Shown here piece after piece: positions 1,448-14,426 of a stretch of 64,000 nucleotides of DNA (position 1 is the stretch's first letter; every line of letters starts with the position of its first letter). This DNA comes from an uncultured Gemmatimonadales bacterium (lineage in GTDB: Bacteria; Gemmatimonadota; Gemmatimonadetes; Gemmatimonadales; GWC2-71-9), in NCBI GenBank assembly GCA_963730185.1, contig CAVSQW010000007.1:512001-576000 (forward strand), given 5' to 3'. Both the position numbers and the translations under genes were made by a program. The notes under the pieces were generated by a model. That model made no database searches and had not been told where the DNA came from. It worked only from the letters and a program-made list of their open reading frames with translations.

Positions 1448-2458
1448 TCACCGGATCCGTCGGGTCCACGCCGCGACCGAGTCCGGCGGCGTGCCCTCCG
1501 GTGCCACCACCCGAGTCCGCAGGGCCGTTCCCTCCCGCCACTGCTCCAGCACGAACGCCAGACCGCCGGTTCGGTAATGCACCCGGACCACCGAGTCGAC
1601 GATCTCCACCCGCGTGGGGGCAAGGCCGTCGATCGCCCGGAGGGTGTCGCCCAGGAAGGCCCGGGCTGCCTGGAGGGCGCTGTCGACCGCCGGTGCCGCG
1701 GGTGTCGGGGCCAGGGCTCCCCGGATCTGAATCCGGTTCGCCGCCAAAGGGCGCCGGGTCGAGTCGGAAGTGCGGGTCACGACCAGCTCGTCCAGACGAT
1801 ACTGGGCACTCTTCATCCGCTCGAGCGCCGCCTTGCGGAGGCTGTCGGCCGCGCGGTCGGCGGCCGGCTCGAGGTCCTTCTGAGGCGCTCGCTTCGTGGC
1901 GGCCGGCCCCGACGCCGACTCGGCCTTGGGTGCCGGCGCCGGGGGCGGCCGATCGGACGGACTGGCCGCTGCGGGAACCGGGGGCGGGGCCGTGGCCCGC
2001 ATGGACTCCAGGCTGGCGGAGTCGGTCAGGGCAAGGTCGCGGGCGGCCGCCGCCGGGCTGTTTCCTCGACCGGCCAGCAGATAGCCGGCCGAGACCGCCA
2101 GCACGACCGTGGCCGCCCAGGCAAGCCCGGCGATCCAGCGGGCCCGGGGCTGGCGGAGCCCGACCGGTGGTGTGGTCGAGGGGGTGGTCCGGGCGATGGA
2201 GACCGGTTCCGGGTCGGTCGCCCGGCCCGCCGCCGAAGTCGCCGGCGCGGCCGGACTCGCGAAGGCGAGCAGCCGATCGTCGGTCTCGTCCAGCGTCTCC
2301 ACCAGCGTCCTGGCCACATCCCGGAACTCCCGGGCCTCGCGGAGCGTGGTCCGGCAGTCGGCACAGTCCGAGAGGTGCGCCTCGACCCGAGCGACCTCGG
2401 TCGAGTCGAGCTCGCCGTCCAGCAGGGCGTGCAGGGTCCCTTCGTCAGGATGCCACAT
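1448..2458 (-). CDS. Zinc-binding (zf-HC2/ZAS) transmembrane anti-sigma factor
   Basis: N-terminal HLSDCADC (Hx3Cx2C), one TM helix, overlaps the ECF sigma gene. Confidence 0.85.
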   Translation of the reverse strand: MWHPDEGTLHALLDGELDSTEVARVEAHLSDCADCRTTLREAREFRDVARTLVETLDETDDRLLAFASPAAPATSAAGRATDPEPVSIARTTPSTTPPVGLRQPRARWIAGLAWAATVVLAVSAGYLLAGRGNSPAAAARDLALTDSASLESMRATAPPPVPAAASPSDRPPPAPAPKAESASGPAATKRAPQKDLEPAADRAADSLRKAALERMKSAQYRLDELVVTRTSDSTRRPLAANRIQIRGALAPTPAAPAVDSALQAARAFLGDTLRAIDGLAPTRVEIVDSVVRVHYRTGGLAFVLEQWREGTALRTRVVAPEGTPPDSVAAWTRRIR

Positions 2459-2945
2459 CACGTTTGTCCTCCGTCGCCCGGTAGGCCTCGACCAGCCGCC
2501 GTCGGGCCCGCGCGAGCGTCGTTCCAATCGAGCCTCGCGAGAGGCCGAGCGTCTCGGCGATCTCGTCGTAGCTCAAGCCTTCCGCGTTGAGTAACAGGGC
2601 CTCTCGGTCACGGTCGGTCAGCCGATCGAGCGCCCGCCGCACCCCGGCGATCCGCTCCTCGCGGAGCAGGCCGTCCTCCGGGCTCGGGGCCCAGGCGGGC
2701 TGTTCGGCCCGGTAGAGCTCCAGCCGGCGCCCCCGCCGCACGGTCCGGCGGCCTTCTTCACGAATCAGGTTCAGGGCCACGGCGAAGAGCCAGGGCCGGG
2801 GATTCCGGGGAGGTGCGGCGACGGCCCGGGCAAAGACTTCCTGCGCCAGCTCTTCCGCGTGCTCGCGATCGCCGGTCCGCCGGTGGAGCATGCGGACCAG
2901 TGACTCGTGATACTGGTGGAAGAGCTCGGCGACGAAGCCGTCCAT
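2445..2945 (-). CDS. ECF RNA polymerase sigma-70 factor
   Basis: AEELAQEVF...PWLFAVALNL (region 2) and GLSYDEIAETLGLSRGSIGTTLARARRRL (region 4). Confidence 0.93.
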   Translation of the reverse strand: MDGFVAELFHQYHESLVRMLHRRTGDREHAEELAQEVFARAVAAPPRNPRPWLFAVALNLIREEGRRTVRRGRRLELYRAEQPAWAPSPEDGLLREERIAGVRRALDRLTDRDREALLLNAEGLSYDEIAETLGLSRGSIGTTLARARRRLVEAYRATEDKRDVAS

Positions 2946-3000
2946 GGGCCGTCCGTTCTCAGGTGCAGGGGAGATGCGTCAGGGGGCCTGGGATGCACAA

Positions 3001-3118
3001 GGGGGGATGGAGGGGGGAGGGGAGATGGGGAGGGGGAGAGGGGGAGGGACGGGGCGAGATGGGCGGACAGCTCCCCCCATCCCCCCCCATCCCCCCCCAT
3101 CCCTCCCCCTCCCCCCTC
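3001..3118. repeat. G-rich tract followed by complementary C-rich tract (about 10-nt period)
   Basis: GGGGGGATGGAGGGGGGAGGGG... followed by (CCCCCCCCAT)-like x3 and CCCTCCCCCTCCCCCC. Confidence 0.8.
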
Positions 3119-5530
3119 TTACGCCCCCACCGCCGCCCGATCCAACACCGACCGGACCGCCGCCGACAGGTCCGCCACCGTGAAGGGCTTGTGGATGAAG
3201 GTGACGCCTGGCTCGGTCAGCCCCTTGCGGTCCACCTCGTCGCGGGCGTACCCGGACATGTAGATGACCTGGGTGGCGGGCCGTTCCTGGGTCAGCACGT
3301 GGGCCAGGCGGAGCCCGTTGAGCTCCGGCATGACCACGTCGGTGAGGAGCAGGTCGATCGGGTCGGGGTATTCGCGGCTCACCACCAGCGCGTCGGCGCC
3401 GTGCCGGGCCTCCAAGACGGTATACCCGGCGTTGGCGAGGATCTTCTGCACCATCCGCCGAACCGACTCCTCGTCCTCGACCAGCAGGATCGTCTCCGAG
3501 CCCCGGGCCACGGAACGGGAGGGCGGCGACCGGTCCTCGATCACCGCGCCGGCCGGTTGCTCCGGGAGGTAGATCACGAAGGTCGTGCCCCGGTCGACCG
3601 CGCTTCGGAAGCCGATCCGGCCGCCGCTCTGCTCCACGATCCCGTAGACCGTCGAGAGCCCGAGCCCGGTGCCCTGACCCGGGGGCTTGGTCGTGAAGAA
3701 GGGCTCGAACACGTGCGTCTGGGTTTCCGGATCCATACCCCGGCCGGTATCGCGCATCGTCAGGGTGACGTAGCGGCGGCGGTCGAGCGGGACCAGCGGT
3801 TCCGGCCCGCCGGGTTGGGGCGTGAACAGCCCGGTCTCGAGCGTCACCCGGCCGCCGCCCGGCATCGCGTCCTGAGCGTTGACGATCAGGTTGACGATCA
3901 CCTGATGGATCTGTCCGGGGTCGGCGTGGACCCAGACCGGGCTCGCGTGGGGCTGGAGGGCCAGCTCGGTATCGGCCCGGAGGAGCCGGGAGAGCATGTT
4001 CCGGCACTCCTCCACGACGCCGTTCAGATCCACCAGCTTGGGCTGGACGACCTGCTGGCGGCTGAAGGTGAGGAGCTGACGGGTCAACGACGTGGCCCGA
4101 TCGACCGCCCGGGCGATCTCGGCGAGGTCGTGCCGGGTCGAGGCCGGGACATGATCGTCTTCAAGCAGGAGGTCGGTGTAGCCCCGGATGGCGGTGAGGA
4201 GGTTGTTGAAGTCGTGGGCGATCCCGCCCGCCAGGCGGCCGACCGCCTCCATCTTGGCCGACTGGCGGAGCTGCTTGCCGCTCAGCTCCAGCCGCTCGGC
4301 CGCCGCCCGCTGCTCGGTGGCGTCCTTCGCGACCACGTAGACGCCCCCGACGCTCCCGCCGCTCATCAGGGGCACGAACGTGACGTCGAGGTCGATTCGG
4401 GAACGGCGGCGGGGGTGGATCGCGGTGGCGAACCGTTGCGGATACCCGGTCAGGGCCCGGCGGAGGTGCTCCTCGAACCGGGCGCCCAAGTTGGGGAGCA
4501 CGTGCCGGACGAACGGGTCACCGACCAGCGCCGAGGCCTCCTCGCCGAAGAGCTGCTCGGTCGCCGGGTTCACGGTGATGACCTCGCCGGTGGGGGCCAG
4601 GGTCAGGACCGCGTCGGGGTGCAGCGCGAAGACGCTCTGGAGCCGGGTCTCCCGCTCCCGGAGCGTCCGGGCGTTCCAGTGGCGCTCGATGGCGACCGCC
4701 GCCAGCGGGGCGGCCAGCTCGAGCAGAGTGCGGAGGCCGGTCTGGGCTCGATATCCGGCTCGGAACCAGACGGTGAGCATCCCGACCAGGGTTTCGTCGG
4801 GCGCGTAGATCGGGACGCCCGCGACCAGTCCAAACCCCAGCTCCGTGGCGACCTGCACCGCGGTGCCGGGCTCGAGTCGGGCCAGCGGAGCGGCGAAGTA
4901 GGGGCCGATCTCCTCGCCGAAGACCCCGAACGGCACGGTCGCGATGGCCTCGCCCATGGCGGACGGGAGGTCCACGGCCGCGTGCAGATTGAGGGCGTCG
5001 CCGTCGGGGTTCAGACCGAAGACGGCGCAGGCCGCGCCCCGGGTCTCGGCCACGACCGCCCCGGCCAGCCGCTCCAGGGTCGTTCCCAGCGGGGCGTCGC
5101 GGACCACCATGCCGAGGACGTCGTGCTGGAGCTCGGAGAGCCGCTCGGCGACCATTCGTTCGGAGATGTCGGCGTGGGCGACCAAGAGGAGGCGCTCGCC
5201 GGCCAGCTGGCAGGGAGCGGCCCGGAGGAGCATCCAGCGGGCGCGCTCGCCGCCGGGCATGGGGTACTCCACCACGTATTCGTTGAGGCGGCCGGCGAAG
5301 ACGTCCGAGAGCCCCCGTTCCACGGCGGCGACCAGGGTGGCCTCCGCGCCGGTATGAGCGGTCCAGGCGGCCAGGTAATCGTCGCTCTGGTGCCCCTGGG
5401 CCTGCCAGGCGCGGTTCCCGAAACGGACCCGGAGGGACCACCGGTCCACGACGGCGATGGCCGACGGCAGGGCGTCGAGGACGCTCGCGCTGGCCAGTCC
5501 TGGGACCCCCCCGGCCTCGGGGGTCGGCAT
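3119..5530 (-). CDS. Hybrid sensor histidine kinase (PAS/GAF/PAS-HisKA-HATPase-REC)
   Basis: [16 protein letters not shown]-box, [15 protein letters not shown]-terminal receiver ILLVEDE...LLLTDVVMP. Confidence 0.95.
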
Positions 5531-6592: not shown

Positions 6593-6667
6593 GGTGGTTG
6601 TAGCTCAATCGGTTAGAGCGCCGGACTGTGGCTCCGGAGGTTGCGGGTTCGATCCCCGTCAGCCACC
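6593..6667 (+). tRNA. tRNA-His(GTG)
   Basis: Cloverleaf, G-1, anticodon arm CCGGA-CT GTG GC-TCCGG, GTTCGA T-loop. Confidence 0.95.
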
Positions 6668-6733
6668 CTGGACGGAGTCGGATGGGGACGCGGGCGACCG
6701 GCCGAAGAAGCCAGGACGCCGGAAGGCAGACAG

Positions 6734-6806
6734 AGGTCCGTAGCTCAATTGGTAGAGCACCGGTCTCCAAAACCGGGGGTTGGGGGTTCGATTCCCTCCG
6801 GGCCTG
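6734..6806 (+). tRNA. tRNA-Trp(CCA)
   Basis: Acceptor AGGTCCG/CGGGCCT, anticodon loop CT CCA AA. Confidence 0.95.
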
Positions 6807-6821
6807 TTGGAGGACCAACAC

Positions 6822-6894
<73 letters not shown>

Positions 6895-6954
6895 TGTGAC
6901 GTTGTCGGGTTGAGAGTCGAGAGTCGACGATCTTTCGGCTCTCGAGTCGTTAGC

Positions 6955-7026
6955 GGCCCCATCGTCCAACGGTTAGGACACCACTCTTTCAAGGTGGTAA
7001 TACGGGTTCGATTCCCGTTGGGGTCA
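6955..7026 (+). tRNA. tRNA-Glu(TTC)
   Basis: Anticodon arm CCACT-CT TTC AA-GGTGG; acceptor GGCCCCA/TGGGGTC. Confidence 0.93.
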
Positions 7027-7028
7027 TG

Positions 7029-7090
7029 GTAGGGAGTTGGGAGTAGTGAGTGGGGAATAGGGAGGCAGTGGGGAGTAGGGAATCGTGGGA
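7029..7090. repeat. Degenerate heptamer tandem repeat (GGGAGTA-like)
   Basis: GGGAGTT GGGAGTA GTGAGTG GGGAATA GGGAG... GGGAGTA GGGAATC between two tRNAs. Confidence 0.7.
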
Positions 7091-7098
7091 CAACAAAC

Positions 7099-7171
<73 letters not shown>

Positions 7172-7413
7172 CTGACGGGAACACAGTTCTGCAAGACCTC
7201 GATACCGCCTCGGTCGGATTGTCCGGCCGGGGCGCTCGCCGTTTGTTCCCCCTCCACCACCCTCTGACGGCCGCCATCCGGGAAACAGGGGTTGCGCCCT
7301 GGCCAAGGCATGGCATGATTCATGAATAGTTCATGAACTGCGATTCACCTGGTCTGCTTCGGCGCTTCCCGATCCTGACCAGCGCAATGACCCTGCGCCA
7401 AGGTCAGGAACGA

Positions 7414-8865
7414 ATGGTCCACGAGCTTGGAAGGACGAGTGCCCTGGGGCTGGGGCTCGCCGTCGCGGTGGGTTTGCTCCCCCCGGCGGTGGCGCGCGGG
7501 GACGGTGGTCGGGGAAAGCCCGCAGTGGCGATCGTCGGGGTGGTGGTGATCGATGGGACGGGTCAGCCGCCCCTCCCGGACATGACCGTGGTGGTGCGCG
7601 ATGGCCGGGTGGTGTCGGTGGGACAGTTGGCCGCGACCCGCATTCCGCGCGGGGCCACGGTGATCCGCGCGACCGGGCTCTACCTAATCCCGGGCCTGTG
7701 GGACATGCACACGCACCTGGCCGGCGGGCCGGTCGTCCGTGATTCCACCATAGCGGCGAACGCGGACTACTTCTTTCCCCGACTGCTTGCGCACGGCGTC
7801 ACGGGCGTCCGCGACATGGGAGGCGACTTCGCCACGCTCGCGGCGTGGCGGACCCGGATCCGGGCGGGCGACCTGCTCGGCCCAGAGATCGTCGGTACCG
7901 GGGCGCGAATCACGGATCTCCAGCCGATGCCCGATGGGCGCTCGATCGGGACGGCTGCCGACCTCGAGGCCGAGGTCAGCCTGCTGGCGGCCCAGGGCGT
8001 GGACTTCATCAAGGTCGTCTGGCTCGACTATCCGCTCTATCTCGCGCTGCCTCGGATCGCGGCGGCGCACGGCCTCAAGGTGGTTGGGCACGTTCCCGCC
8101 ACGGTGGCTCTGGGGGAGGCGGTGGACTCGGGCCTCGCTGGAGTCGAGCACCTGGCGCCCGTCCTGGCCGCGTGCTCTCGCGTGTCGGATCGGATCCTGA
8201 CGATGGCCCGGGAGAGTGGGTCGTGGTGGGACCGGTTGCTGGTCCGTCTCCGGCTTCGAGATCCTGAACGGAGCGGTCTCGAGCGTCTCCGGCTCGCGAC
8301 CGAGACCCAGGACGAGCGTCGCTGCGAGCCGGTGCTCCGCGAGCTGCGGCGCCACGGCGTGCCGGTGACGCCGACGCTGAGCATGTCCGAGCTGACCGCG
8401 CCGCGTGGCACGAGCCTCGGGAAGGCGCGGTTGGCGGCCGAGCGCCGGGTGGTCGGGTGGATGTGGGAGGCGGGGGTGCCGCTGCTGGCCGGCAGCGACA
8501 TCGGCGGGCCGGTGCGGGAGGCCGGTGAGTCGCTGATTCGCGAGCTCTGCCTGCTGGTCCGCGCCGGTCTGACGCCAATGGACGCGATCGTGACCGCCAC
8601 CTCGCGGGCGACGGCATTCCTCGGCCTGGCGGACTCGGTCGGTACCATCCGTCCGGGCCAGCGGGCCGATCTCGTGCTCCTGTCGCGCGATCCCTTGAAG
8701 GATCCCGTGAATCTGCTGAGCGTGCAGGCCGTCATGGTGCGCGGGCGCTTGGTCGCGGGCGAGGACTTCGAGGCGCTTCGGCAGCGGGCGGGGCTCCTGT
8801 CGCGCGAGCACGAGGCGACCGAGCGGATCAACGCCCCGATCGGTGCCCGGGCGCCGGGGGACTGA
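7414..8865 (+). CDS. Secreted metal-dependent amidohydrolase
   Basis: PGLWDMHTH, GVTGVRDMGG, LLAGSD, GTIRPGQRADLVLL; signal-like N-terminus; start uncertain. Confidence 0.88.
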   Translation: MVHELGRTSALGLGLAVAVGLLPPAVARGDGGRGKPAVAIVGVVVIDGTGQPPLPDMTVVVRDGRVVSVGQLAATRIPRGATVIRATGLYLIPGLWDMHTHLAGGPVVRDSTIAANADYFFPRLLAHGVTGVRDMGGDFATLAAWRTRIRAGDLLGPEIVGTGARITDLQPMPDGRSIGTAADLEAEVSLLAAQGVDFIKVVWLDYPLYLALPRIAAAHGLKVVGHVPATVALGEAVDSGLAGVEHLAPVLAACSRVSDRILTMARESGSWWDRLLVRLRLRDPERSGLERLRLATETQDERRCEPVLRELRRHGVPVTPTLSMSELTAPRGTSLGKARLAAERRVVGWMWEAGVPLLAGSDIGGPVREAGESLIRELCLLVRAGLTPMDAIVTATSRATAFLGLADSVGTIRPGQRADLVLLSRDPLKDPVNLLSVQAVMVRGRLVAGEDFEALRQRAGLLSREHEATERINAPIGARAPGD

Positions 8866-8969
8866 GCCCTTACGGCACCGGCCGGGCCCCGATAGACTGG
8901 AGGGTCGTTTCCCGGCCGATCGCCGTTACCCTCGCGCGCTCCCGCCCTCAGCGGGAGGATGGAGTTCGC

Positions 8970-9854
8970 ATGCACCGCTCTCCCTGGCTTCCGGTCCTGG
9001 TCCTGATGGCCGGGCTGGTGCCCTCCGTCGCCCACGCCCAGCAGAAGCTCAAGGTCTACGTCTCCGTCGACATGGAAGGGATCTCGGGCGTCGTCTCGAT
9101 GGCGCAGGTAGCCGGCAAAGACTACGAGTGGGGTCGGGAGCAGATGCTGGCCGAGACCAACGCCGCGATCGCGGCGGCGTTCGACGCTGGTGCCACCGAG
9201 GTCCTGGTCAACGACTCGCACGGCTCCCACACCAACCTCCGCGCCGACCTGCTCGACCGCCGGGCCACGCTGATCAGCGGAACTCCCACCCCGATGGGGA
9301 TGGTCGAAGGGTTGGACTCGACCTTCGACGCGGCCATGTTCATCGGCTTCCACGGCCACGCCAACCAGACCGACGCGGTGCTCGGCCACACCTACAGCCT
9401 GGCGCTTCGCCACGTGCGCCTCAACGGCCGGGAGGTGGGTGAGTACGGGACGGCCGGCATGGTGGCGGGGCATTTCGGGGTGCCGGTGGTGTTCGTCTCC
9501 GGCGACGAGTCGTTCGCCGCAGCGGCCCGGGCCTTCATGCCGGGAGTCGAGGCGCTGGCCGTGAAGCAGGCGATCGGGTTCACCGCCGCCAGGCTGATGA
9601 ACCCGGCGGTGGCGCGCGAGAAAATGGCGGCGGGCATCCGGGCCGGCCTGGGCCGGCGGTCGTCGATCGCGCCGGTCCGGCTCCAGCGGCCCATCAATCT
9701 CGAGATCGAGCTCGCCAGCGCGGCCTTCGCCGACAAGGCGATGTTCATACCCGGAATGGAGCGCCTCGACGGGACCACGGTGCGCTACGTCGCCTCGGAC
9801 GGCGCGGCGGCCTATCGGATGTCCCGGCTGATCATGATGCTGGCTCGGGACTGA
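8970..9854 (+). CDS. M55-family D-aminopeptidase (DppA-like), secreted
   Basis: VYVSVDMEG, VNDSHG, FIGFHG, LGHTYS, VFVSGD motifs. Confidence 0.92.
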   Translation: MHRSPWLPVLVLMAGLVPSVAHAQQKLKVYVSVDMEGISGVVSMAQVAGKDYEWGREQMLAETNAAIAAAFDAGATEVLVNDSHGSHTNLRADLLDRRATLISGTPTPMGMVEGLDSTFDAAMFIGFHGHANQTDAVLGHTYSLALRHVRLNGREVGEYGTAGMVAGHFGVPVVFVSGDESFAAAARAFMPGVEALAVKQAIGFTAARLMNPAVAREKMAAGIRAGLGRRSSIAPVRLQRPINLEIELASAAFADKAMFIPGMERLDGTTVRYVASDGAAAYRMSRLIMMLARD

Positions 9855-9976: not shown

Positions 9977-10426
9977 ATGATGCGCGGTAAGCCGAAGCGG
10001 CGAAGCGGGAGCTCCAGGAAGGTGACCAAGGCGCGGCCGGCGGCCCGGAAGGCTGCGCCGAAAAAAGTCGCTGCGAAGGCGGCGGGTGAGAGCAAGCGGA
10101 AGGTCCCGCCGTTCGGTCGCCGGAGCCACCGGGTTACCCACGCCCAGGCTCGCCGGATGCGCCAGAGGTTCCTGCGCCGATACCAGGGGGCCCGGCACCC
10201 GCTCCGGGCCGGCGTATACGACCGGGGCATCTTCGACAAGATCCTGAAGCAAAGGGGATGCAAGGGGGTCCGGTTCTACCCCGCTCTGGATGATGCCGGC
10301 GAGCTGACCTTGCTGTTCGCCGGTGTCGACGGCGAGGGTCACGACATGCTCGCCGGGATCATCGGGGACATGCCCTGGCGCTGCCCGCCTTATTGCAGCG
10401 CAACGAACGGCATTCTGGCTCACTGA
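9977..10426 (+). CDS. Hypothetical soluble protein with basic N-terminal tail and C-terminal CPPYC motif
   Basis: RBS AGGAG; GCKGVRFYPA..LTLLFAGVD..GHDML..DMPWRCPPYC. Confidence 0.85.
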   Translation: MMRGKPKRRSGSSRKVTKARPAARKAAPKKVAAKAAGESKRKVPPFGRRSHRVTHAQARRMRQRFLRRYQGARHPLRAGVYDRGIFDKILKQRGCKGVRFYPALDDAGELTLLFAGVDGEGHDMLAGIIGDMPWRCPPYCSATNGILAH

Positions 10427-10450
10427 TCAGTCGCTCGCCGAGCCCGACGG

Positions 10451-11131
10451 GTGACCGCGTCGATCGTCGCGTCCGCCATGGTGACGTTGGCCATGGCGCT
10501 CGTCGTGGCCTTGAGTTGGCGCACCCGGGCTTCGCTCGATCGCGGAGCTCGGCCCATCGCCGTCGGCGTTGGCCTGTCGTTGGTGGGCGCGCTGATTTCC
10601 CTCGGGTTCGTGCTTCGAGGCCGGGAAACACGGCCGATCGCGGAAGGTCTGCTCCTGATCGAGACGTCGCTCGTCCTCTGGGGCATGGCGGCCTGGCAGA
10701 CCAATCGGAGGTCGGCGCGAGTCCTCCGCCTGATGATCCCGGGATGGGGAGTCGTGTGGCTGGCGGCGCAGTTCCTTCAAGGTTCCGCCGAGCCGTTCAG
10801 TCCCATCACCGCGCCGATCGGCCACACCCTCAAGGTCGGTGCGGCGGCCTACACCCTCATCATCCGGTTCCGGGCCACGGAAGGCGACTGGACCCGACAC
10901 CTCTGGTTCTGGTTCTGTACCGGCATCATGCTGATGTACGGGACGGAGATCTTCCTCGACCCTCTCTGGCAGCGGGTCTTTCCGGTCCGGGACGATCTGG
11001 TCTTCGCGGCGTTCTTCTTCAACCTGGTCATGAACGCGATCGGGTATGCCCTCATGGCCTACGGGCTGATCCGGGTCGTGCGGCCGGGTCCGACCAGCAA
11101 CCCTAGGGATTTCCCTAGGGTGAAGGCCTAG
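10451..11131 (+). CDS. Hypothetical 7-TM membrane protein (putative receptor)
   Basis: About seven hydrophobic segments, FWFCTGIMLMYG in TM6, no soluble output domain. Confidence 0.8.
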   Translation: MTASIVASAMVTLAMALVVALSWRTRASLDRGARPIAVGVGLSLVGALISLGFVLRGRETRPIAEGLLLIETSLVLWGMAAWQTNRRSARVLRLMIPGWGVVWLAAQFLQGSAEPFSPITAPIGHTLKVGAAAYTLIIRFRATEGDWTRHLWFWFCTGIMLMYGTEIFLDPLWQRVFPVRDDLVFAAFFFNLVMNAIGYALMAYGLIRVVRPGPTSNPRDFPRVKA

Positions 11132-11173
11132 GGGTTTTCCCAGATTGCTCTCGCGGCCTGAGGGCGATAAGCT
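11103..11173 (+). promoter_or_regulatory. Paired 16-bp boxes plus promoter upstream of the histidine kinase
   Basis: CTAGGGATTTCCCTAG (11103-11118) and CTAGGGGTTTTCCCAG (11128-11143), then TTGCTC-N17-TAAGCT. Confidence 0.7.
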
Positions 11174-11235
11174 GCCGACTCGGAGTCACCCGTCAATCGG
11201 GGGACCAACCGGCCGAGGTCGCGACGGAAGGCACG

Positions 11236-12015
11236 ATGGCAACCAGCACGGCGCCGGCAGTCTGGTGGGTCTACGTCCTGGCCGGGGCGGTGACGGTCAT
11301 CTTCACCGCGACGGTCGTCGGGGTCATCGTGTTCGCGCAGCGACGCCAAGTCGAGCAGAGCCAGCGGTTCAGCCAGGGCTTGGTCGAGGCCCAGGAGGCG
11401 GAGCGGGCCCGGATCGCCCGGGAGCTCCACGACGACATCATCCAGCGGATCGCCCTGATCGGCGGCGAAGTGACCGAGCTGGGCCGGGTGATTCCCGATC
11501 CCCCGCCGATCGTGCACCAGCGCCTGGAGGGCCTCCGCGACGAGCTCCGCGACCTCGCCGACGAGGTCCGCTCCATGGCCCGCCGAGCCCATCCCTCCAT
11601 CCTGGATCACCTCGGGCTCTTCAAGGCGCTCCAGAGCCTCGCTGGCGAGATGCGGATTTCCGACGGACTCGACGTGACGCTCGATCTCGACCTCGACGAC
11701 GGCCAGAACGGTCTGCCGTCGCCTGCGGCACTCTCCCTCTATCGGGTGGCGCAGGAGGGGCTTCGAAACGTTGCCCGGCACGCCGGGACCGGGGCGGCGG
11801 TCCTCCGGGCCGGCCGTCGCGATCGGGGAGTGTTCGTCGAGGTGCAGGATGAAGGCGTCGGGAGCTCGCCCGGCGATCGCGACGGCCGCGGCCTCGGACT
11901 CCGGGGGTTGTCGGAGCGGCTTCGGGCCGTCAAAGGGCAGCTGAGCCTCGACAGCGAACCGGGACGGGGCACCCGCCTCACCGCCTGGGTTTCCGAACGG
12001 ACGAACGACTCATGA
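11236..12015 (+). CDS. NarX/HisKA_3-type histidine kinase with a single N-terminal TM and no sensor domain
   Basis: ERARIARELHDDIIQ, LYRVAQEGLRNVARHA, DEGVG, GLGLRGLSER. Confidence 0.93.
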   Translation: MATSTAPAVWWVYVLAGAVTVIFTATVVGVIVFAQRRQVEQSQRFSQGLVEAQEAERARIARELHDDIIQRIALIGGEVTELGRVIPDPPPIVHQRLEGLRDELRDLADEVRSMARRAHPSILDHLGLFKALQSLAGEMRISDGLDVTLDLDLDDGQNGLPSPAALSLYRVAQEGLRNVARHAGTGAAVLRAGRRDRGVFVEVQDEGVGSSPGDRDGRGLGLRGLSERLRAVKGQLSLDSEPGRGTRLTAWVSERTNDS

Positions 12016-12701
12016 CCCTTGCCGCCCGCATCCTCCTGGTCGACGACCACCCGCTCGTGTGCCAGGGGCTCAAGGCGATTCTCGAGCCGACCCACCACGT
12101 CGTGGGAATGGTGCACGACGGAACCGAAGTGATGGACGCGGTCCGCGCGCTGAGCCCCAACCTGGTGCTCCTGGACCTCGGCTTGCCTGGGCGGCTCGGT
12201 CTCGACGTCTGTCGTGACATCCGGGCGGCCTTCCCGGGCATCAAGGTGCTGGTGGTGAGCATGCAGGCCGAGCGGATCTACGCCGAAGAAGCGCTGCGGG
12301 CGGGGGCGGCCGGCTTCCTGGTGAAGCTCTCGTCCGACAAGGACGTCCTCACCGCCGTCGCCGAGGTGATGGCGGGGCGCCCCTACCGGAACGCCAAGCT
12401 CGAGGTCCGGACCCGGCCGGCCCAGACCGAGCGCCACGCCACCGCCAGCGGGCGGCTCCGCGATCCCCTGGAGATGCTCTCCCACCGCCAGCGTCAGGTG
12501 TTCGTCCTGATGGGACAGGGGAAGACGACCCAGGAGATCGCCGAGGCGCTCGGGGTGGGCGTCAAGACGGTCGAGTTCCACCGGGCCGCGATGGAAAAGG
12601 CGCTCGGCATCAAGAGTGCGCGGGCCCTGATGCGCCTCAGCATGGAGCGGATGAGCGAGCCGGGCGCACCCACCCTCGACGAGCTGGATCGCTCCGACTA
12701 G
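12012..12701 (+). CDS. NarL/LuxR-family response regulator
   Basis: ILLVDDHPLV, LVLLDLGLP, LSHRQRQVF..GKTTQEIAEALGVGVKTVEFHR; ATGA overlap with the kinase. Confidence 0.95.
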   Translation: MTLAARILLVDDHPLVCQGLKAILEPTHHVVGMVHDGTEVMDAVRALSPNLVLLDLGLPGRLGLDVCRDIRAAFPGIKVLVVSMQAERIYAEEALRAGAAGFLVKLSSDKDVLTAVAEVMAGRPYRNAKLEVRTRPAQTERHATASGRLRDPLEMLSHRQRQVFVLMGQGKTTQEIAEALGVGVKTVEFHRAAMEKALGIKSARALMRLSMERMSEPGAPTLDELDRSD

Positions 12702-12768
12702 GGATTTCCCCAGGGCGAGTGACCAGGGTTTGTCCCAACTGGTTGCTGGCGCCCGCGATTCCTATCCT
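12698..12768 (+). promoter_or_regulatory. Second pair of 16-bp boxes plus -10 upstream of the 12815 gene
   Basis: CTAGGGATTTCCCCAG (12698-12713), CCAGGGTTTGTCCCAA (12723-12738), TATCCT at 12763. Confidence 0.68.
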
Positions 12769-12814
12769 GTGACGGTCACGAGAGCACTACCGCCGTCCAC
12801 GAAGGAGTCGCCCG

Positions 12815-13228
12815 ATGTCAGCCACCGTCGAGATGGTCACCGTGGAAACCCTCCCCTGCCGGGCCTGCGGCCGGCAGCACCGCCTCCGACTCGCGCTGGT
12901 CGCGGCCGATCCGTCCGATCAGGATATCACCCTCGGGTTCTTCGGCCGGTGTCCCGACCTGGGGCGGAAGAGCTGGATGGTGATCGCCGTCCCGGTGGCC
13001 GCGGACGGTGCCTCGCGGCTGCTCCGGATGGGCCCGCCGGATCAGGACGGCTGGGAGCCGGACGATCTCGAGTCCATTCGCCGGGCCGTGGCGGTCGACG
13101 CGGTGCTCGGCCGCCGTCCCTCCCCCCGCCCCGCGCCGCCGCCCCCTCGCCCGCGTCCCGGCGACGGGTACCGCCGGATCCCGGTTCCCGATCTCCTCCG
13201 CCGGGCCCTCGGGTGCCCGATGGGCTGA
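12815..13228 (+). CDS. Small hypothetical protein with CxxC..H..CP (zinc-ribbon-like) and Pro-rich tail
   Basis: RBS AAGGAG; LPCRACGRQH...GRCP. Confidence 0.7.
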   Translation: MSATVEMVTVETLPCRACGRQHRLRLALVAADPSDQDITLGFFGRCPDLGRKSWMVIAVPVAADGASRLLRMGPPDQDGWEPDDLESIRRAVAVDAVLGRRPSPRPAPPPPRPRPGDGYRRIPVPDLLRRALGCPMG

Positions 13229-13415: not shown

Positions 13416-14426
13416 ATGGCGATTCTGGTAACCGGCGGGGCGGGGTACATTGGCAGCCACGCGTGTCTCGAGCTGCTCCGGGCGGGCCACGAGGTGGTGG
13501 TGGTGGACAACCTGAGCAACAGCCGCGAAGACGCGGTCCATCGGGTGGAGCGTCTGGCCGGCAAGCGGCTGGCGTTCCACCGGGTGGACATCCGGGACCG
13601 GGCCGGTCTCGAGGCGGTGTTCGCCGGGGCGTCGATCGATTCGGTGATGCACTTCGCCGGGCTCAAGGCCGTCGGGGAGTCGGTGGGGCAGCCGCTTCGG
13701 TACTTCGACAACAACATCACCGGCACGATCGTCCTGCTCGAGGTGATGAAGCAGCACGCCGTCAAGACGCTGGTGTTCAGCTCGTCGGCGACGGTCTACG
13801 GGGATCCGGCGAGCGTCCCGATTCGGGAGGACTTTCCGCTCTCGGCCTACAACCCCTACGGGCGTTCGAAGCTCTTCATCGAGGACATGCTGCGGGACCT
13901 GGTCCGCGCCGAGCCCGATTGGCGGGTCGCGCTGCTCCGCTACTTCAACCCGACCGGGGCGGACCCGAGCGGGGACATCGGCGAGGACCCCAACGGAATC
14001 CCCAACAACCTGGTACCGTACATCGCCCAGGTGGCGGTCGGGAAGTTGGAGGAGTTGCCGGTCTACGGGGGCGACTACCCCACTCGGGACGGCACCGGGG
14101 TCCGTGACTACATCCACGTGACCGATCTGGTGCTCGGCCACCTCAAGGCGCTGGAGAAGCTGGCCCGGGGGCCGGGCGTCGTGACCTACAATCTGGGTAC
14201 CGGCCAGGGCTACAGCGTGCTGGATGTGATCCACGCCTTCGAGCGGGCGGCGGGTAAGCCGATCGCCCATCGGATCGTCGACCGCCGGCCGGGGGATGCC
14301 GCCGAGTGCTGGGCCGATCCGTCGCTGGCCGGGCGCGAGCTGGGCTGGACGGCGACCCGCGACCTCGACGTGATGTGCGCCGACGTCTGGCGCTGGCAGA
14401 CCCAGAACCCGAACGGGTACGCCTAA
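13416..14426 (+). CDS. galE: UDP-glucose 4-epimerase
   Basis: ILVTGGAGYIGSH, HFAGLKAVGES, FSSSATVYG, YGRSK, LRYFNP. Confidence 0.96.
   Translation: MAILVTGGAGYIGSHACLELLRAGHEVVVVDNLSNSREDAVHRVERLAGKRLAFHRVDIRDRAGLEAVFAGASIDSVMHFAGLKAVGESVGQPLRYFDNNITGTIVLLEVMKQHAVKTLVFSSSATVYGDPASVPIREDFPLSAYNPYGRSKLFIEDMLRDLVRAEPDWRVALLRYFNPTGADPSGDIGEDPNGIPNNLVPYIAQVAVGKLEELPVYGGDYPTRDGTGVRDYIHVTDLVLGHLKALEKLARGPGVVTYNLGTGQGYSVLDVIHAFERAAGKPIAHRIVDRRPGDAAECWADPSLAGRELGWTATRDLDVMCADVWRWQTQNPNGYA

Follow-up and report, generated by a model that had tools for sequence, protein, structure and literature searches.

A candidate signalling cassette in Gemmatimonadales and other phyla in which a variable protein tail and a seven-helix membrane protein are exchanged together beside a one-helix histidine kinase

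A 64,000-nucleotide stretch of the genome of an uncultured Gemmatimonadales bacterium (GenBank assembly GCA_963730185.1, contig CAVSQW010000007.1, positions 512,001 to 576,000; the whole stretch is called the window here) carries five co-oriented genes. They encode a small protein with a conserved domain and a variable C-terminal tail (A), a stand-alone seven-helix membrane protein (B), a histidine kinase without a sensor domain, a NarL-type response regulator and a cysteine-motif protein (gene 5, or T). Comparison with relatives shows that A, B and a kinase with one transmembrane helix are inherited together, and that the tail of A plus B is exchanged as one unit. The cassette is real, widespread and uncharacterised, and strong genetic evidence speaks for a swappable code of tail and receptor. 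An initial annotation, made from the letters of the DNA, had listed the same five open reading frames (ORFs), all of which hold at the coordinates given in Table 1. Its statement that no function had been characterised also stands, as A and B match no characterised family. No paper describing the cassette was found; supplements lay outside the literature search, so a mention in transcriptome tables is possible.

Linkage of A, B and the kinase, and exchange of the A tail with B

The exchange is seen most directly by comparing the loci L074 and L081 (locus handles are our own). Their proteins are 100% identical in the A core, 96% in the kinase core and 99% in the regulator, but only 61% in the tail and 33% in B. 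On the DNA level, measured in 60-nt bins, identity amounts to 85-100% outside and to 40-62% across B. The break lies four codons before the CPPxC motif of A, and identity is back to 100% at the kinase start. A similar dip was found in L074/L087, L092/L107, L120/L142 and L085/L111, and a shallower one in L082/L130. The exchanged unit comprises the last ~17-20 residues of A plus all of B.

For swap statistics, 18 disjoint pairs with a kinase identity of at least 80% were drawn from 112 distinct cassettes. Median identity was 92% for the kinase and 85% for the A core, compared to 69% for the tail and 65% for B. The identity of B followed neither that of the A core (rho 0.09) nor that of the kinase (rho -0.09). 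In one genus of the own phylum, the kinases are 92-93% identical in five pairs but the B proteins only 49-65%, and where tails are near-identical, as in L031/L033 and L167/L173, B stays at 86-92%. Moreover, four loci (L043, L072, L073 and L098) hold orphan modules, each consisting of a 3' remnant of A and another B. The orphan B of L043, which belongs to the family of the window, shares 94% identity with the main B of the congener L053, and the tails are closely similar; the two main B proteins are 58% and the two kinases 92% identical. We consider it likely that tail and B are a cognate pair. Contigs of four soil and sediment runs, which are short and patchy, contained no joint or loose end showing a swap at the cassette locus, and the sequencing runs listed as carrying it included no RNA run.

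Linkage of the genes was followed in two large sets of loci. In the own phylum, 301 genomes were scanned for A and 41 matched. The 40 loci taken cover 41 of the 45 non-own A matches, the four weakest being excluded. B follows A in 40/40 of these loci, with three B copies partial or broken, and kinase and regulator come next in 33 of the 37 loci with room for them. A separate tally of family genomes stands at 68/301, includes one unpublished genome and has no other claim built on it. For other phyla, species genomes were scanned with a Bacteroidota-type A alignment; 158 stretches were confirmed and the best 80 used, mostly from Bacteroidota, with Calditrichota and KSB1 in addition. Among these best 80, B follows A in 76 of the 77 loci with room and a kinase comes next in 70/73. 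B overlaps or abuts the kinase in most loci. A check put forward with the initial annotation asked whether homologues of A and B co-occur with pairs of kinase and regulator; in both sets they co-occur with single-helix kinases. A metagenome scan added four loci, one of them close, and the single pattern used on viral contigs found no relative. By tblastn, A, B and T each occur once in the host genome of the window (5.27 Mb, 82% complete).

Some loci depart from this order. In L041, L042, L059, L062, L072 and L073, A-B pairs or arrays have no kinase next to them; such sets may plug into a kinase encoded elsewhere. L149 carries, beside a full cassette, a second B-kinase-regulator set on the opposite strand (2176-4261), next to which no A was detected. 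An ORF family of ~112 aa recurs near the cassette in 13 Bacteroidota loci, including L082, L086 and L089.

Proteins A and B and the kinase

In a protein library clustered at 50% identity, 685 clusters are related to A at E ≤ 0.001, and the best 150 representatives were inspected. A consists of a basic low-complexity N-terminal tail of ~40 aa, a domain of ~105 aa and the C-terminal tail, with the family motifs H-x-I, LxQxGCxGIRxY, LVxVGVD, GxD and CPPxC. Of the best 150 representatives, 61 are at least 175 aa long and mostly tandem double domains. In the numbering of the window, L90, Q92, R99, Y101, G116, D123, C136, P137, P138 and C140 are near-invariant, R99 and Y101 of the core being fully so. 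The initial annotation had A end in DMPWRCPPYC, which is wrong: nine residues follow CPPYC, close to the family median of 8 residues after the last cysteine (84 proteins). All three cysteines could be scored in 290 of 330 distinct A domain rows, and C95 alone is missing in 52. Among the 290, C136 and C140 are both gone in 8 of the 13 rows that lack either. This joint loss agrees with a disulfide between C136 and C140 or with a site that both share, and the tail is probably closed by a disulfide within Cys-Pro-Pro-x-Cys. Tandem full-length copies of A are present in L034 (5722-6210) and L068, one L034 copy lacking both C95 and C140; in L126, both tail cysteines of A are gone and B is kept.

The AlphaFold model of A (predicted local distance difference test, pLDDT, 89.5) shows two helices and three strands. 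Against solved folds, no Foldseek match reached E ≤ 0.001 and the best VIA Z score was 3.5, which does not by itself prove the fold to be new. Profiles of A and B against the sequences of solved structures gave nothing significant; Pfam has no match for A, B or gene 5, and NCBIfam none near cut-off.

A signal-like hydrophobic N-terminus is present in 40 of the 150 representatives, and a lipobox-like motif, by a crude pattern, in 12. Inside A-B-kinase loci, A with a signal peptide or lipobox occurs in L048, L105, L114, L128 and L134. Several lipoprotein forms carry acidic residues after the cysteine. This stretch may resemble the K-(D/E)2 or Q-A-(D/E)2 signal for surface export that is described for Bacteroidetes in PMC5080379.

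B had been predicted to be a seven-transmembrane protein, and its model indeed folds into seven helices (pLDDT 92, predicted template-modelling score 0.87). Loop charges give an N-out/C-in topology, with a positive-inside bias on loops 1 and 3. The nearest solved structures are bundles resembling G-protein-coupled receptors (GPCRs) and rhodopsins (Z 10.5-13.7; no Foldseek E < 0.001). Among natural structures, adhesion GPCRs match best (Z 12.8, root-mean-square deviation 4.1, 203 residues aligned), and an entry of microbial rhodopsin type reached Z 10.8. Sequence identity to these structures is 5-16%, and Z scores of this size lie within the range expected of helical bundles by arrangement alone. 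Helix 7 of the window's B (181-209) has no retinal-binding lysine, and no lysine is conserved across the B family, which has no invariant residue at all. B sequences searched against Pfam (n=38) and NCBIfam (n=109) matched no family, including LiaF and UhpC (MFS), and neither database gave an AgrB match for A, B or family members. The outer half of B diverges more than the inner half (identity 63 vs 69%, p=0.014). Complex prediction for A and B scored 0.00 with controls likewise unfolded and is uninformative on binding either way. No fused B-kinase protein was found among the longer proteins searched, which is weak evidence. In L151, a metagenomic relative with 95% identity, a premature TAA interrupts helix 7 of B (~966, equivalent to 11045-11047 of the window); A, the boxes and the kinase start are intact, and the codon represents either a receptor-null allele or a sequencing error.

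The kinase was confirmed as a HisKA_3 protein with one N-terminal hydrophobic helix as its input, as had been described, and the regulator as NarL-type by its REC and GerE matches. The helix spans approximately residues 9-34 and is preceded by about 9 residues; the best NCBIfam matches of the kinase, MctS and UhpB, are both far below their cut-offs. The regulator carries Asp11, Asp12, Asp55, Ser83 and Lys105. In five loci (L051, L103, L121, L134 and L147), an unrelated PAS-HisKA kinase follows A-B, in four of the five with a REC domain. The N-terminal helix of these kinases scores 9-20 bits on the helix profile of the HisKA_3 kinases (training median 35), compared to a best score of -2 anywhere in the B proteins, which served as the control set. 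A similar helix on unrelated kinase cores indicates that A, B and a docking helix make up the conserved unit and that the output is exchangeable. Gene order and this portable helix lend good support to the proposal that B is the trans-encoded sensor of the kinase, which we regard as very probable.

Palindromic boxes, putative promoters and neighbouring genes

A 40-nt double-palindrome repeat, absent from the initial annotation, lies at 11103-11142 and 12698-12737, before the kinase and before gene 5. At no more than one mismatch, its core is found at only these two sites in the host genome. Each box pair adjoins a -35-like hexamer, a 17-nt spacer and a -10-like hexamer, a layout also present in relatives. 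The first box pair is kept in the 95%-identical relative, and the box before the gene 5 homologue is conserved across the genus. The gap of 104 nt between B and kinase, with a putative promoter of its own, is unlike that of most relatives, and the first box pair encodes the last residues of B (11103-11131).

Upstream of A, a box of the type CTAGG-N6-CCTAG was found in 14 of 41 loci compared to 1.8 expected from shuffles, an excess that is somewhat inflated because the consensus was derived from the same 41 loci. In the genus, an exact pattern has hits in 8 of 10 congeners, with 1-4 sites per genome (reversed control: 0); these sites precede A, T, small membrane proteins, a Tle1-like phospholipase, a WYL protein, a LuxR-type helix-turn-helix protein and others. 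In L185 and L188, both congeners, transposase-like fragments were seen by eye after the box promoter. A matrix scan of the own genome returned 18 sites with at least 15 bits, of which three new candidates have promoter-like flanks: a PLD-family gene (C15:272085, with a poor -10) and genes for two uncharacterised proteins of 292 and 141 aa, the two further predicted targets being C15:632947 and C1:35130. The 292-aa protein (L203 1682-2557, on C15 of G000) has no Pfam match; it carries Cys and His motifs in its C-terminal half, which may be peptidase-like. From their position, the regulator would bind these palindromic boxes, and the box before A in relatives would imply positive feedback. An ECF-sigma (extracytoplasmic-function sigma factor) reading of the promoter motif was set aside, as perfect palindromes and the 17-nt -35/-10 spacing would fit a dimeric activator better.

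Gene 5 had been counted into the cassette as its target. Its strong matches are restricted to the own genus (5/5 congeners; two weak ones elsewhere in the 301 genomes), which rules it out as a core part. It retains the role of a local target gene and is best described as a member of a regulon at genus level.

Table 1 Features of the cassette in the window, all on the forward strand.
Feature	Position	Strand	Description
Gene A	9977..10426	+	149 aa (148 with the second Met as start)
Variable tail of A, residues 131-149	10367..10423	+	CPPYC at 10382-10396
Gene B	10451..11131	+	226 aa, stand-alone seven-helix membrane protein, no output domain
Box pair 1	11103-11118, 11128-11143	+	Two 16-nt palindromes, spaced by 25 nt; overlap with the end of B
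Putative kinase-regulator promoter	11145..11173	+	TTGCTC, 17 nt, TAAGCT; immediately follows the second box
Histidine kinase	11236..12015	+	259 aa, HisKA_3 (His65) and HATPase_c, no sensor domain
NarL/LuxR-type response regulator	12012..12701	+	229 aa, REC and GerE; 4-nt overlap with the kinase
Box pair 2	12698-12713, 12723-12738	+	Ahead of gene 5
Putative gene 5 promoter	12740-12745, 12763-12768	+	TGGTTG, 17 nt, TATCCT; after box pair 2
Gene 5 (T)	12815..13228	+	137 aa, CxxC..C..C protein

Five tRNA genes (His, Trp, Glu, Glu, Lys) are clustered at 6594-7172, 2.8 kb upstream of the cassette, and three further tRNA genes lie elsewhere in the window. An amidohydrolase and an M55 D-aminopeptidase are encoded within 7333-9854. 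Both were considered as processing enzymes and rejected, since neither recurs beside the cassette across genera. Downstream, an NAD-dependent epimerase (GalE-like, 13416-14426) follows gene 5, as it does in several congeners.

Proposed mechanism, rival readings and known systems

We lean slightly towards a polymorphic ligand-receptor pair that feeds a two-component switch and would serve allele-specific recognition of kin or self, reinforced by positive feedback. The conserved domain of A would act as a generic carrier (or processing) part and the tail as an allele-specific tag. The tag, free or still on A, would bind the outer face of its cognate B, which would pack against the single kinase helix and switch the kinase in trans. 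The phosphorylated regulator could then bind the box beside the -35 and activate a small regulon. In many relatives this regulon would include the A operon; in the window's genome it would cover gene 5 and the pair of kinase and regulator, with three distant genes as probable further members. The signal-peptide and lipoprotein forms of A and the faster change of the outer half of B suggest that the tag acts outside the cytoplasm; for leaderless A, lysis, vesicles or a housekeeping exporter are candidate exits. Whether the signal passes between cells is close to evenly balanced in our view, if anything slightly on the doubtful side. The initial annotation had likewise cast A as a ligand or its precursor. 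Strong genetic support speaks for this in that the tail co-swaps with B, whereas an AgrB-like processing enzyme or an exporter is absent as a conserved neighbour.

Several observations weigh against a ligand-receptor pair of this kind. Most A proteins, that of the window included, are leaderless (110 of the 150 representatives carry no signal peptide), genes for an exporter or a protease are not among the neighbours shared across genera, and the diderm envelope stands between an outside signal and B. Identities of B and tail are correlated in rank with only rho 0.41 (p=0.09, n=18), two pairs with a changed tail (61%) have B at 85 and 92%, and in some pairs the divergent tract also takes in part of the A core or of the kinase helix. 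Co-exchange would likewise follow from any close physical partnership. The window's own allele offers no clean swap: its only close relative (95%) shares tail and B. Boxes are assigned to the regulator by position only, and since no box precedes A in the window, feedback here would raise kinase and regulator and not the tag. Unrelated single-pass kinases were not among the controls of the helix profile.

With most A leaderless and no linked export or processing gene, an accessory sensor working within the cell stays a serious rival, unlikely as we rate it. A would then be a subunit permanently bound to B, or a redox or metal switch on it that uses the thiol pair of CPPxC, and the two together would respond to stress or a small molecule and govern the kinase in the manner of LiaF or UhpC. 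Tail and B would be co-exchanged only through their contact, and diversity would reflect different environmental ligands. The correlation between tail and B, which falls short of significance, agrees with this, as do the invariant R99 and Y101 and the near-invariant D123, and joint loss of the tail cysteines is as compatible with a redox or metal site as with a ring. However, a cytoplasmic thiol switch fits poorly to lipoprotein and signal-peptide forms in the same cassette, and a generic accessory needs neither a breakpoint four codons before the Cys motif beside a 100%-identical core nor stored orphan modules of tail and B.

A special case of the ligand-receptor model, with another trigger, is a kin-damage alarm or guard. 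Here, A would be held inside or keep B quiet, reach B upon lysis of a same-allele cell or cleavage by an attacker, and switch on a regulon of defence. The leaderless majority of A would suit such a trigger, the box promoters precede the PLD-family gene here and Tle1-like phospholipase and WYL genes in congeners, and the orphan-module layout resembles conflict systems as described in PMC3150448. Most box targets, though, are small proteins without known function that differ between genomes; PADLOC has no match for A, B or gene 5 and only a weak partial DrmC match for the PLD gene, and the single-pattern scan of viral contigs was empty. We consider the alarm improbable. A microcin-like pair, with the A tail as peptide toxin, B as immunity protein and the kinase as co-located regulator, would share the CdiA-CT/CdiI layout of polymorphic C-terminus, co-swapped neighbour and orphan modules, and is very improbable given a variable part of less than 20 residues, a B that has a receptor-like fold and in most loci overlaps, or lies directly next to, a kinase without a sensor, and no delivery system nearby.

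Among known systems, agr had been named as the closest parallel. AgrC carries its receptor domain fused to the kinase, and AgrA is a LytTR regulator. In staphylococcal agrBDCA, a hypervariable block joining signal and receptor defines allelic groups (PMC10482373). The four-gene operon and a hypervariable signal-receptor block are shared with that system, the block being found in relatives of the cassette and not for the window's allele. Positive feedback through the regulator would be a further parallel, and a Cys ring motif of five residues is at least conceivable. In contrast, the cassette has no AgrB homologue, A is a folded domain of ~105 aa where agr has a short propeptide, the receptor role would fall to a separate seven-helix protein, and the kinase is of HisKA_3 (or hybrid HisKA) type with one helix. 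Its regulator is NarL-type, its hosts are diderm, and its ring would be a disulfide and not a thiolactone. The resemblance proposed earlier extends to the hypervariable block and probably to feedback, and, with no AgrB, fused receptor or LytTR, the cassette is not an agr member.

LiaFSR/VraTSR and UhpABC share a HisKA_3 kinase with minimal input, a NarL regulator, a separate membrane protein and, probably, autoregulation, but B matches none of their accessory families in Pfam or NCBIfam. We know of no extra polymorphic small protein or allele cassettes in these systems. CdiA-CT/CdiI and Rhs combine a conserved N-terminal part, a polymorphic C-terminus and a cognate downstream gene, with orphans that are main alleles elsewhere (PMC3150448). 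The orphan modules of tail and B mirror the CdiA-CT/CdiI orphans exchanged between strains in that account; the differences lie in the short variable part, a seven-helix partner tied to a kinase, and no secretion system or known toxin domain. The likeness to GPCRs and microbial rhodopsins is one of fold only, i.e., the seven-helix arrangement and N-out/C-in topology; helix 7 of the window's B has no lysine, and B would act on a kinase helix instead of a G protein. The cassette lacks defining features of agr and LiaFSR/UhpABC, and no toxin or delivery part is seen.

Signalling by peptide pherotypes is known mainly from Gram-positive bacteria. The cassette bears genetic marks of a ligand-receptor code in the sharp breakpoint of its swaps, in its orphan modules and in its feedback box. 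In its widest form, which we hold tentatively and rate below an even chance, the ligand-receptor reading would amount to allele-specific protein or peptide communication in diderm bacteria, among them Bacteroidota, Gemmatimonadota and neighbouring phyla. A carrier with a new fold would present or release a disulfide-closed tail, a stand-alone GPCR-shaped receptor would switch any kinase with the docking helix, dialects would change by cassette replacement and orphan receptors would listen in. Predictions of this model are directly testable in culturable genera such as Pontibacter and Hymenobacter. If true, these bacteria would possess a GPCR-shaped receptor acting in trans on a histidine kinase via one portable helix.

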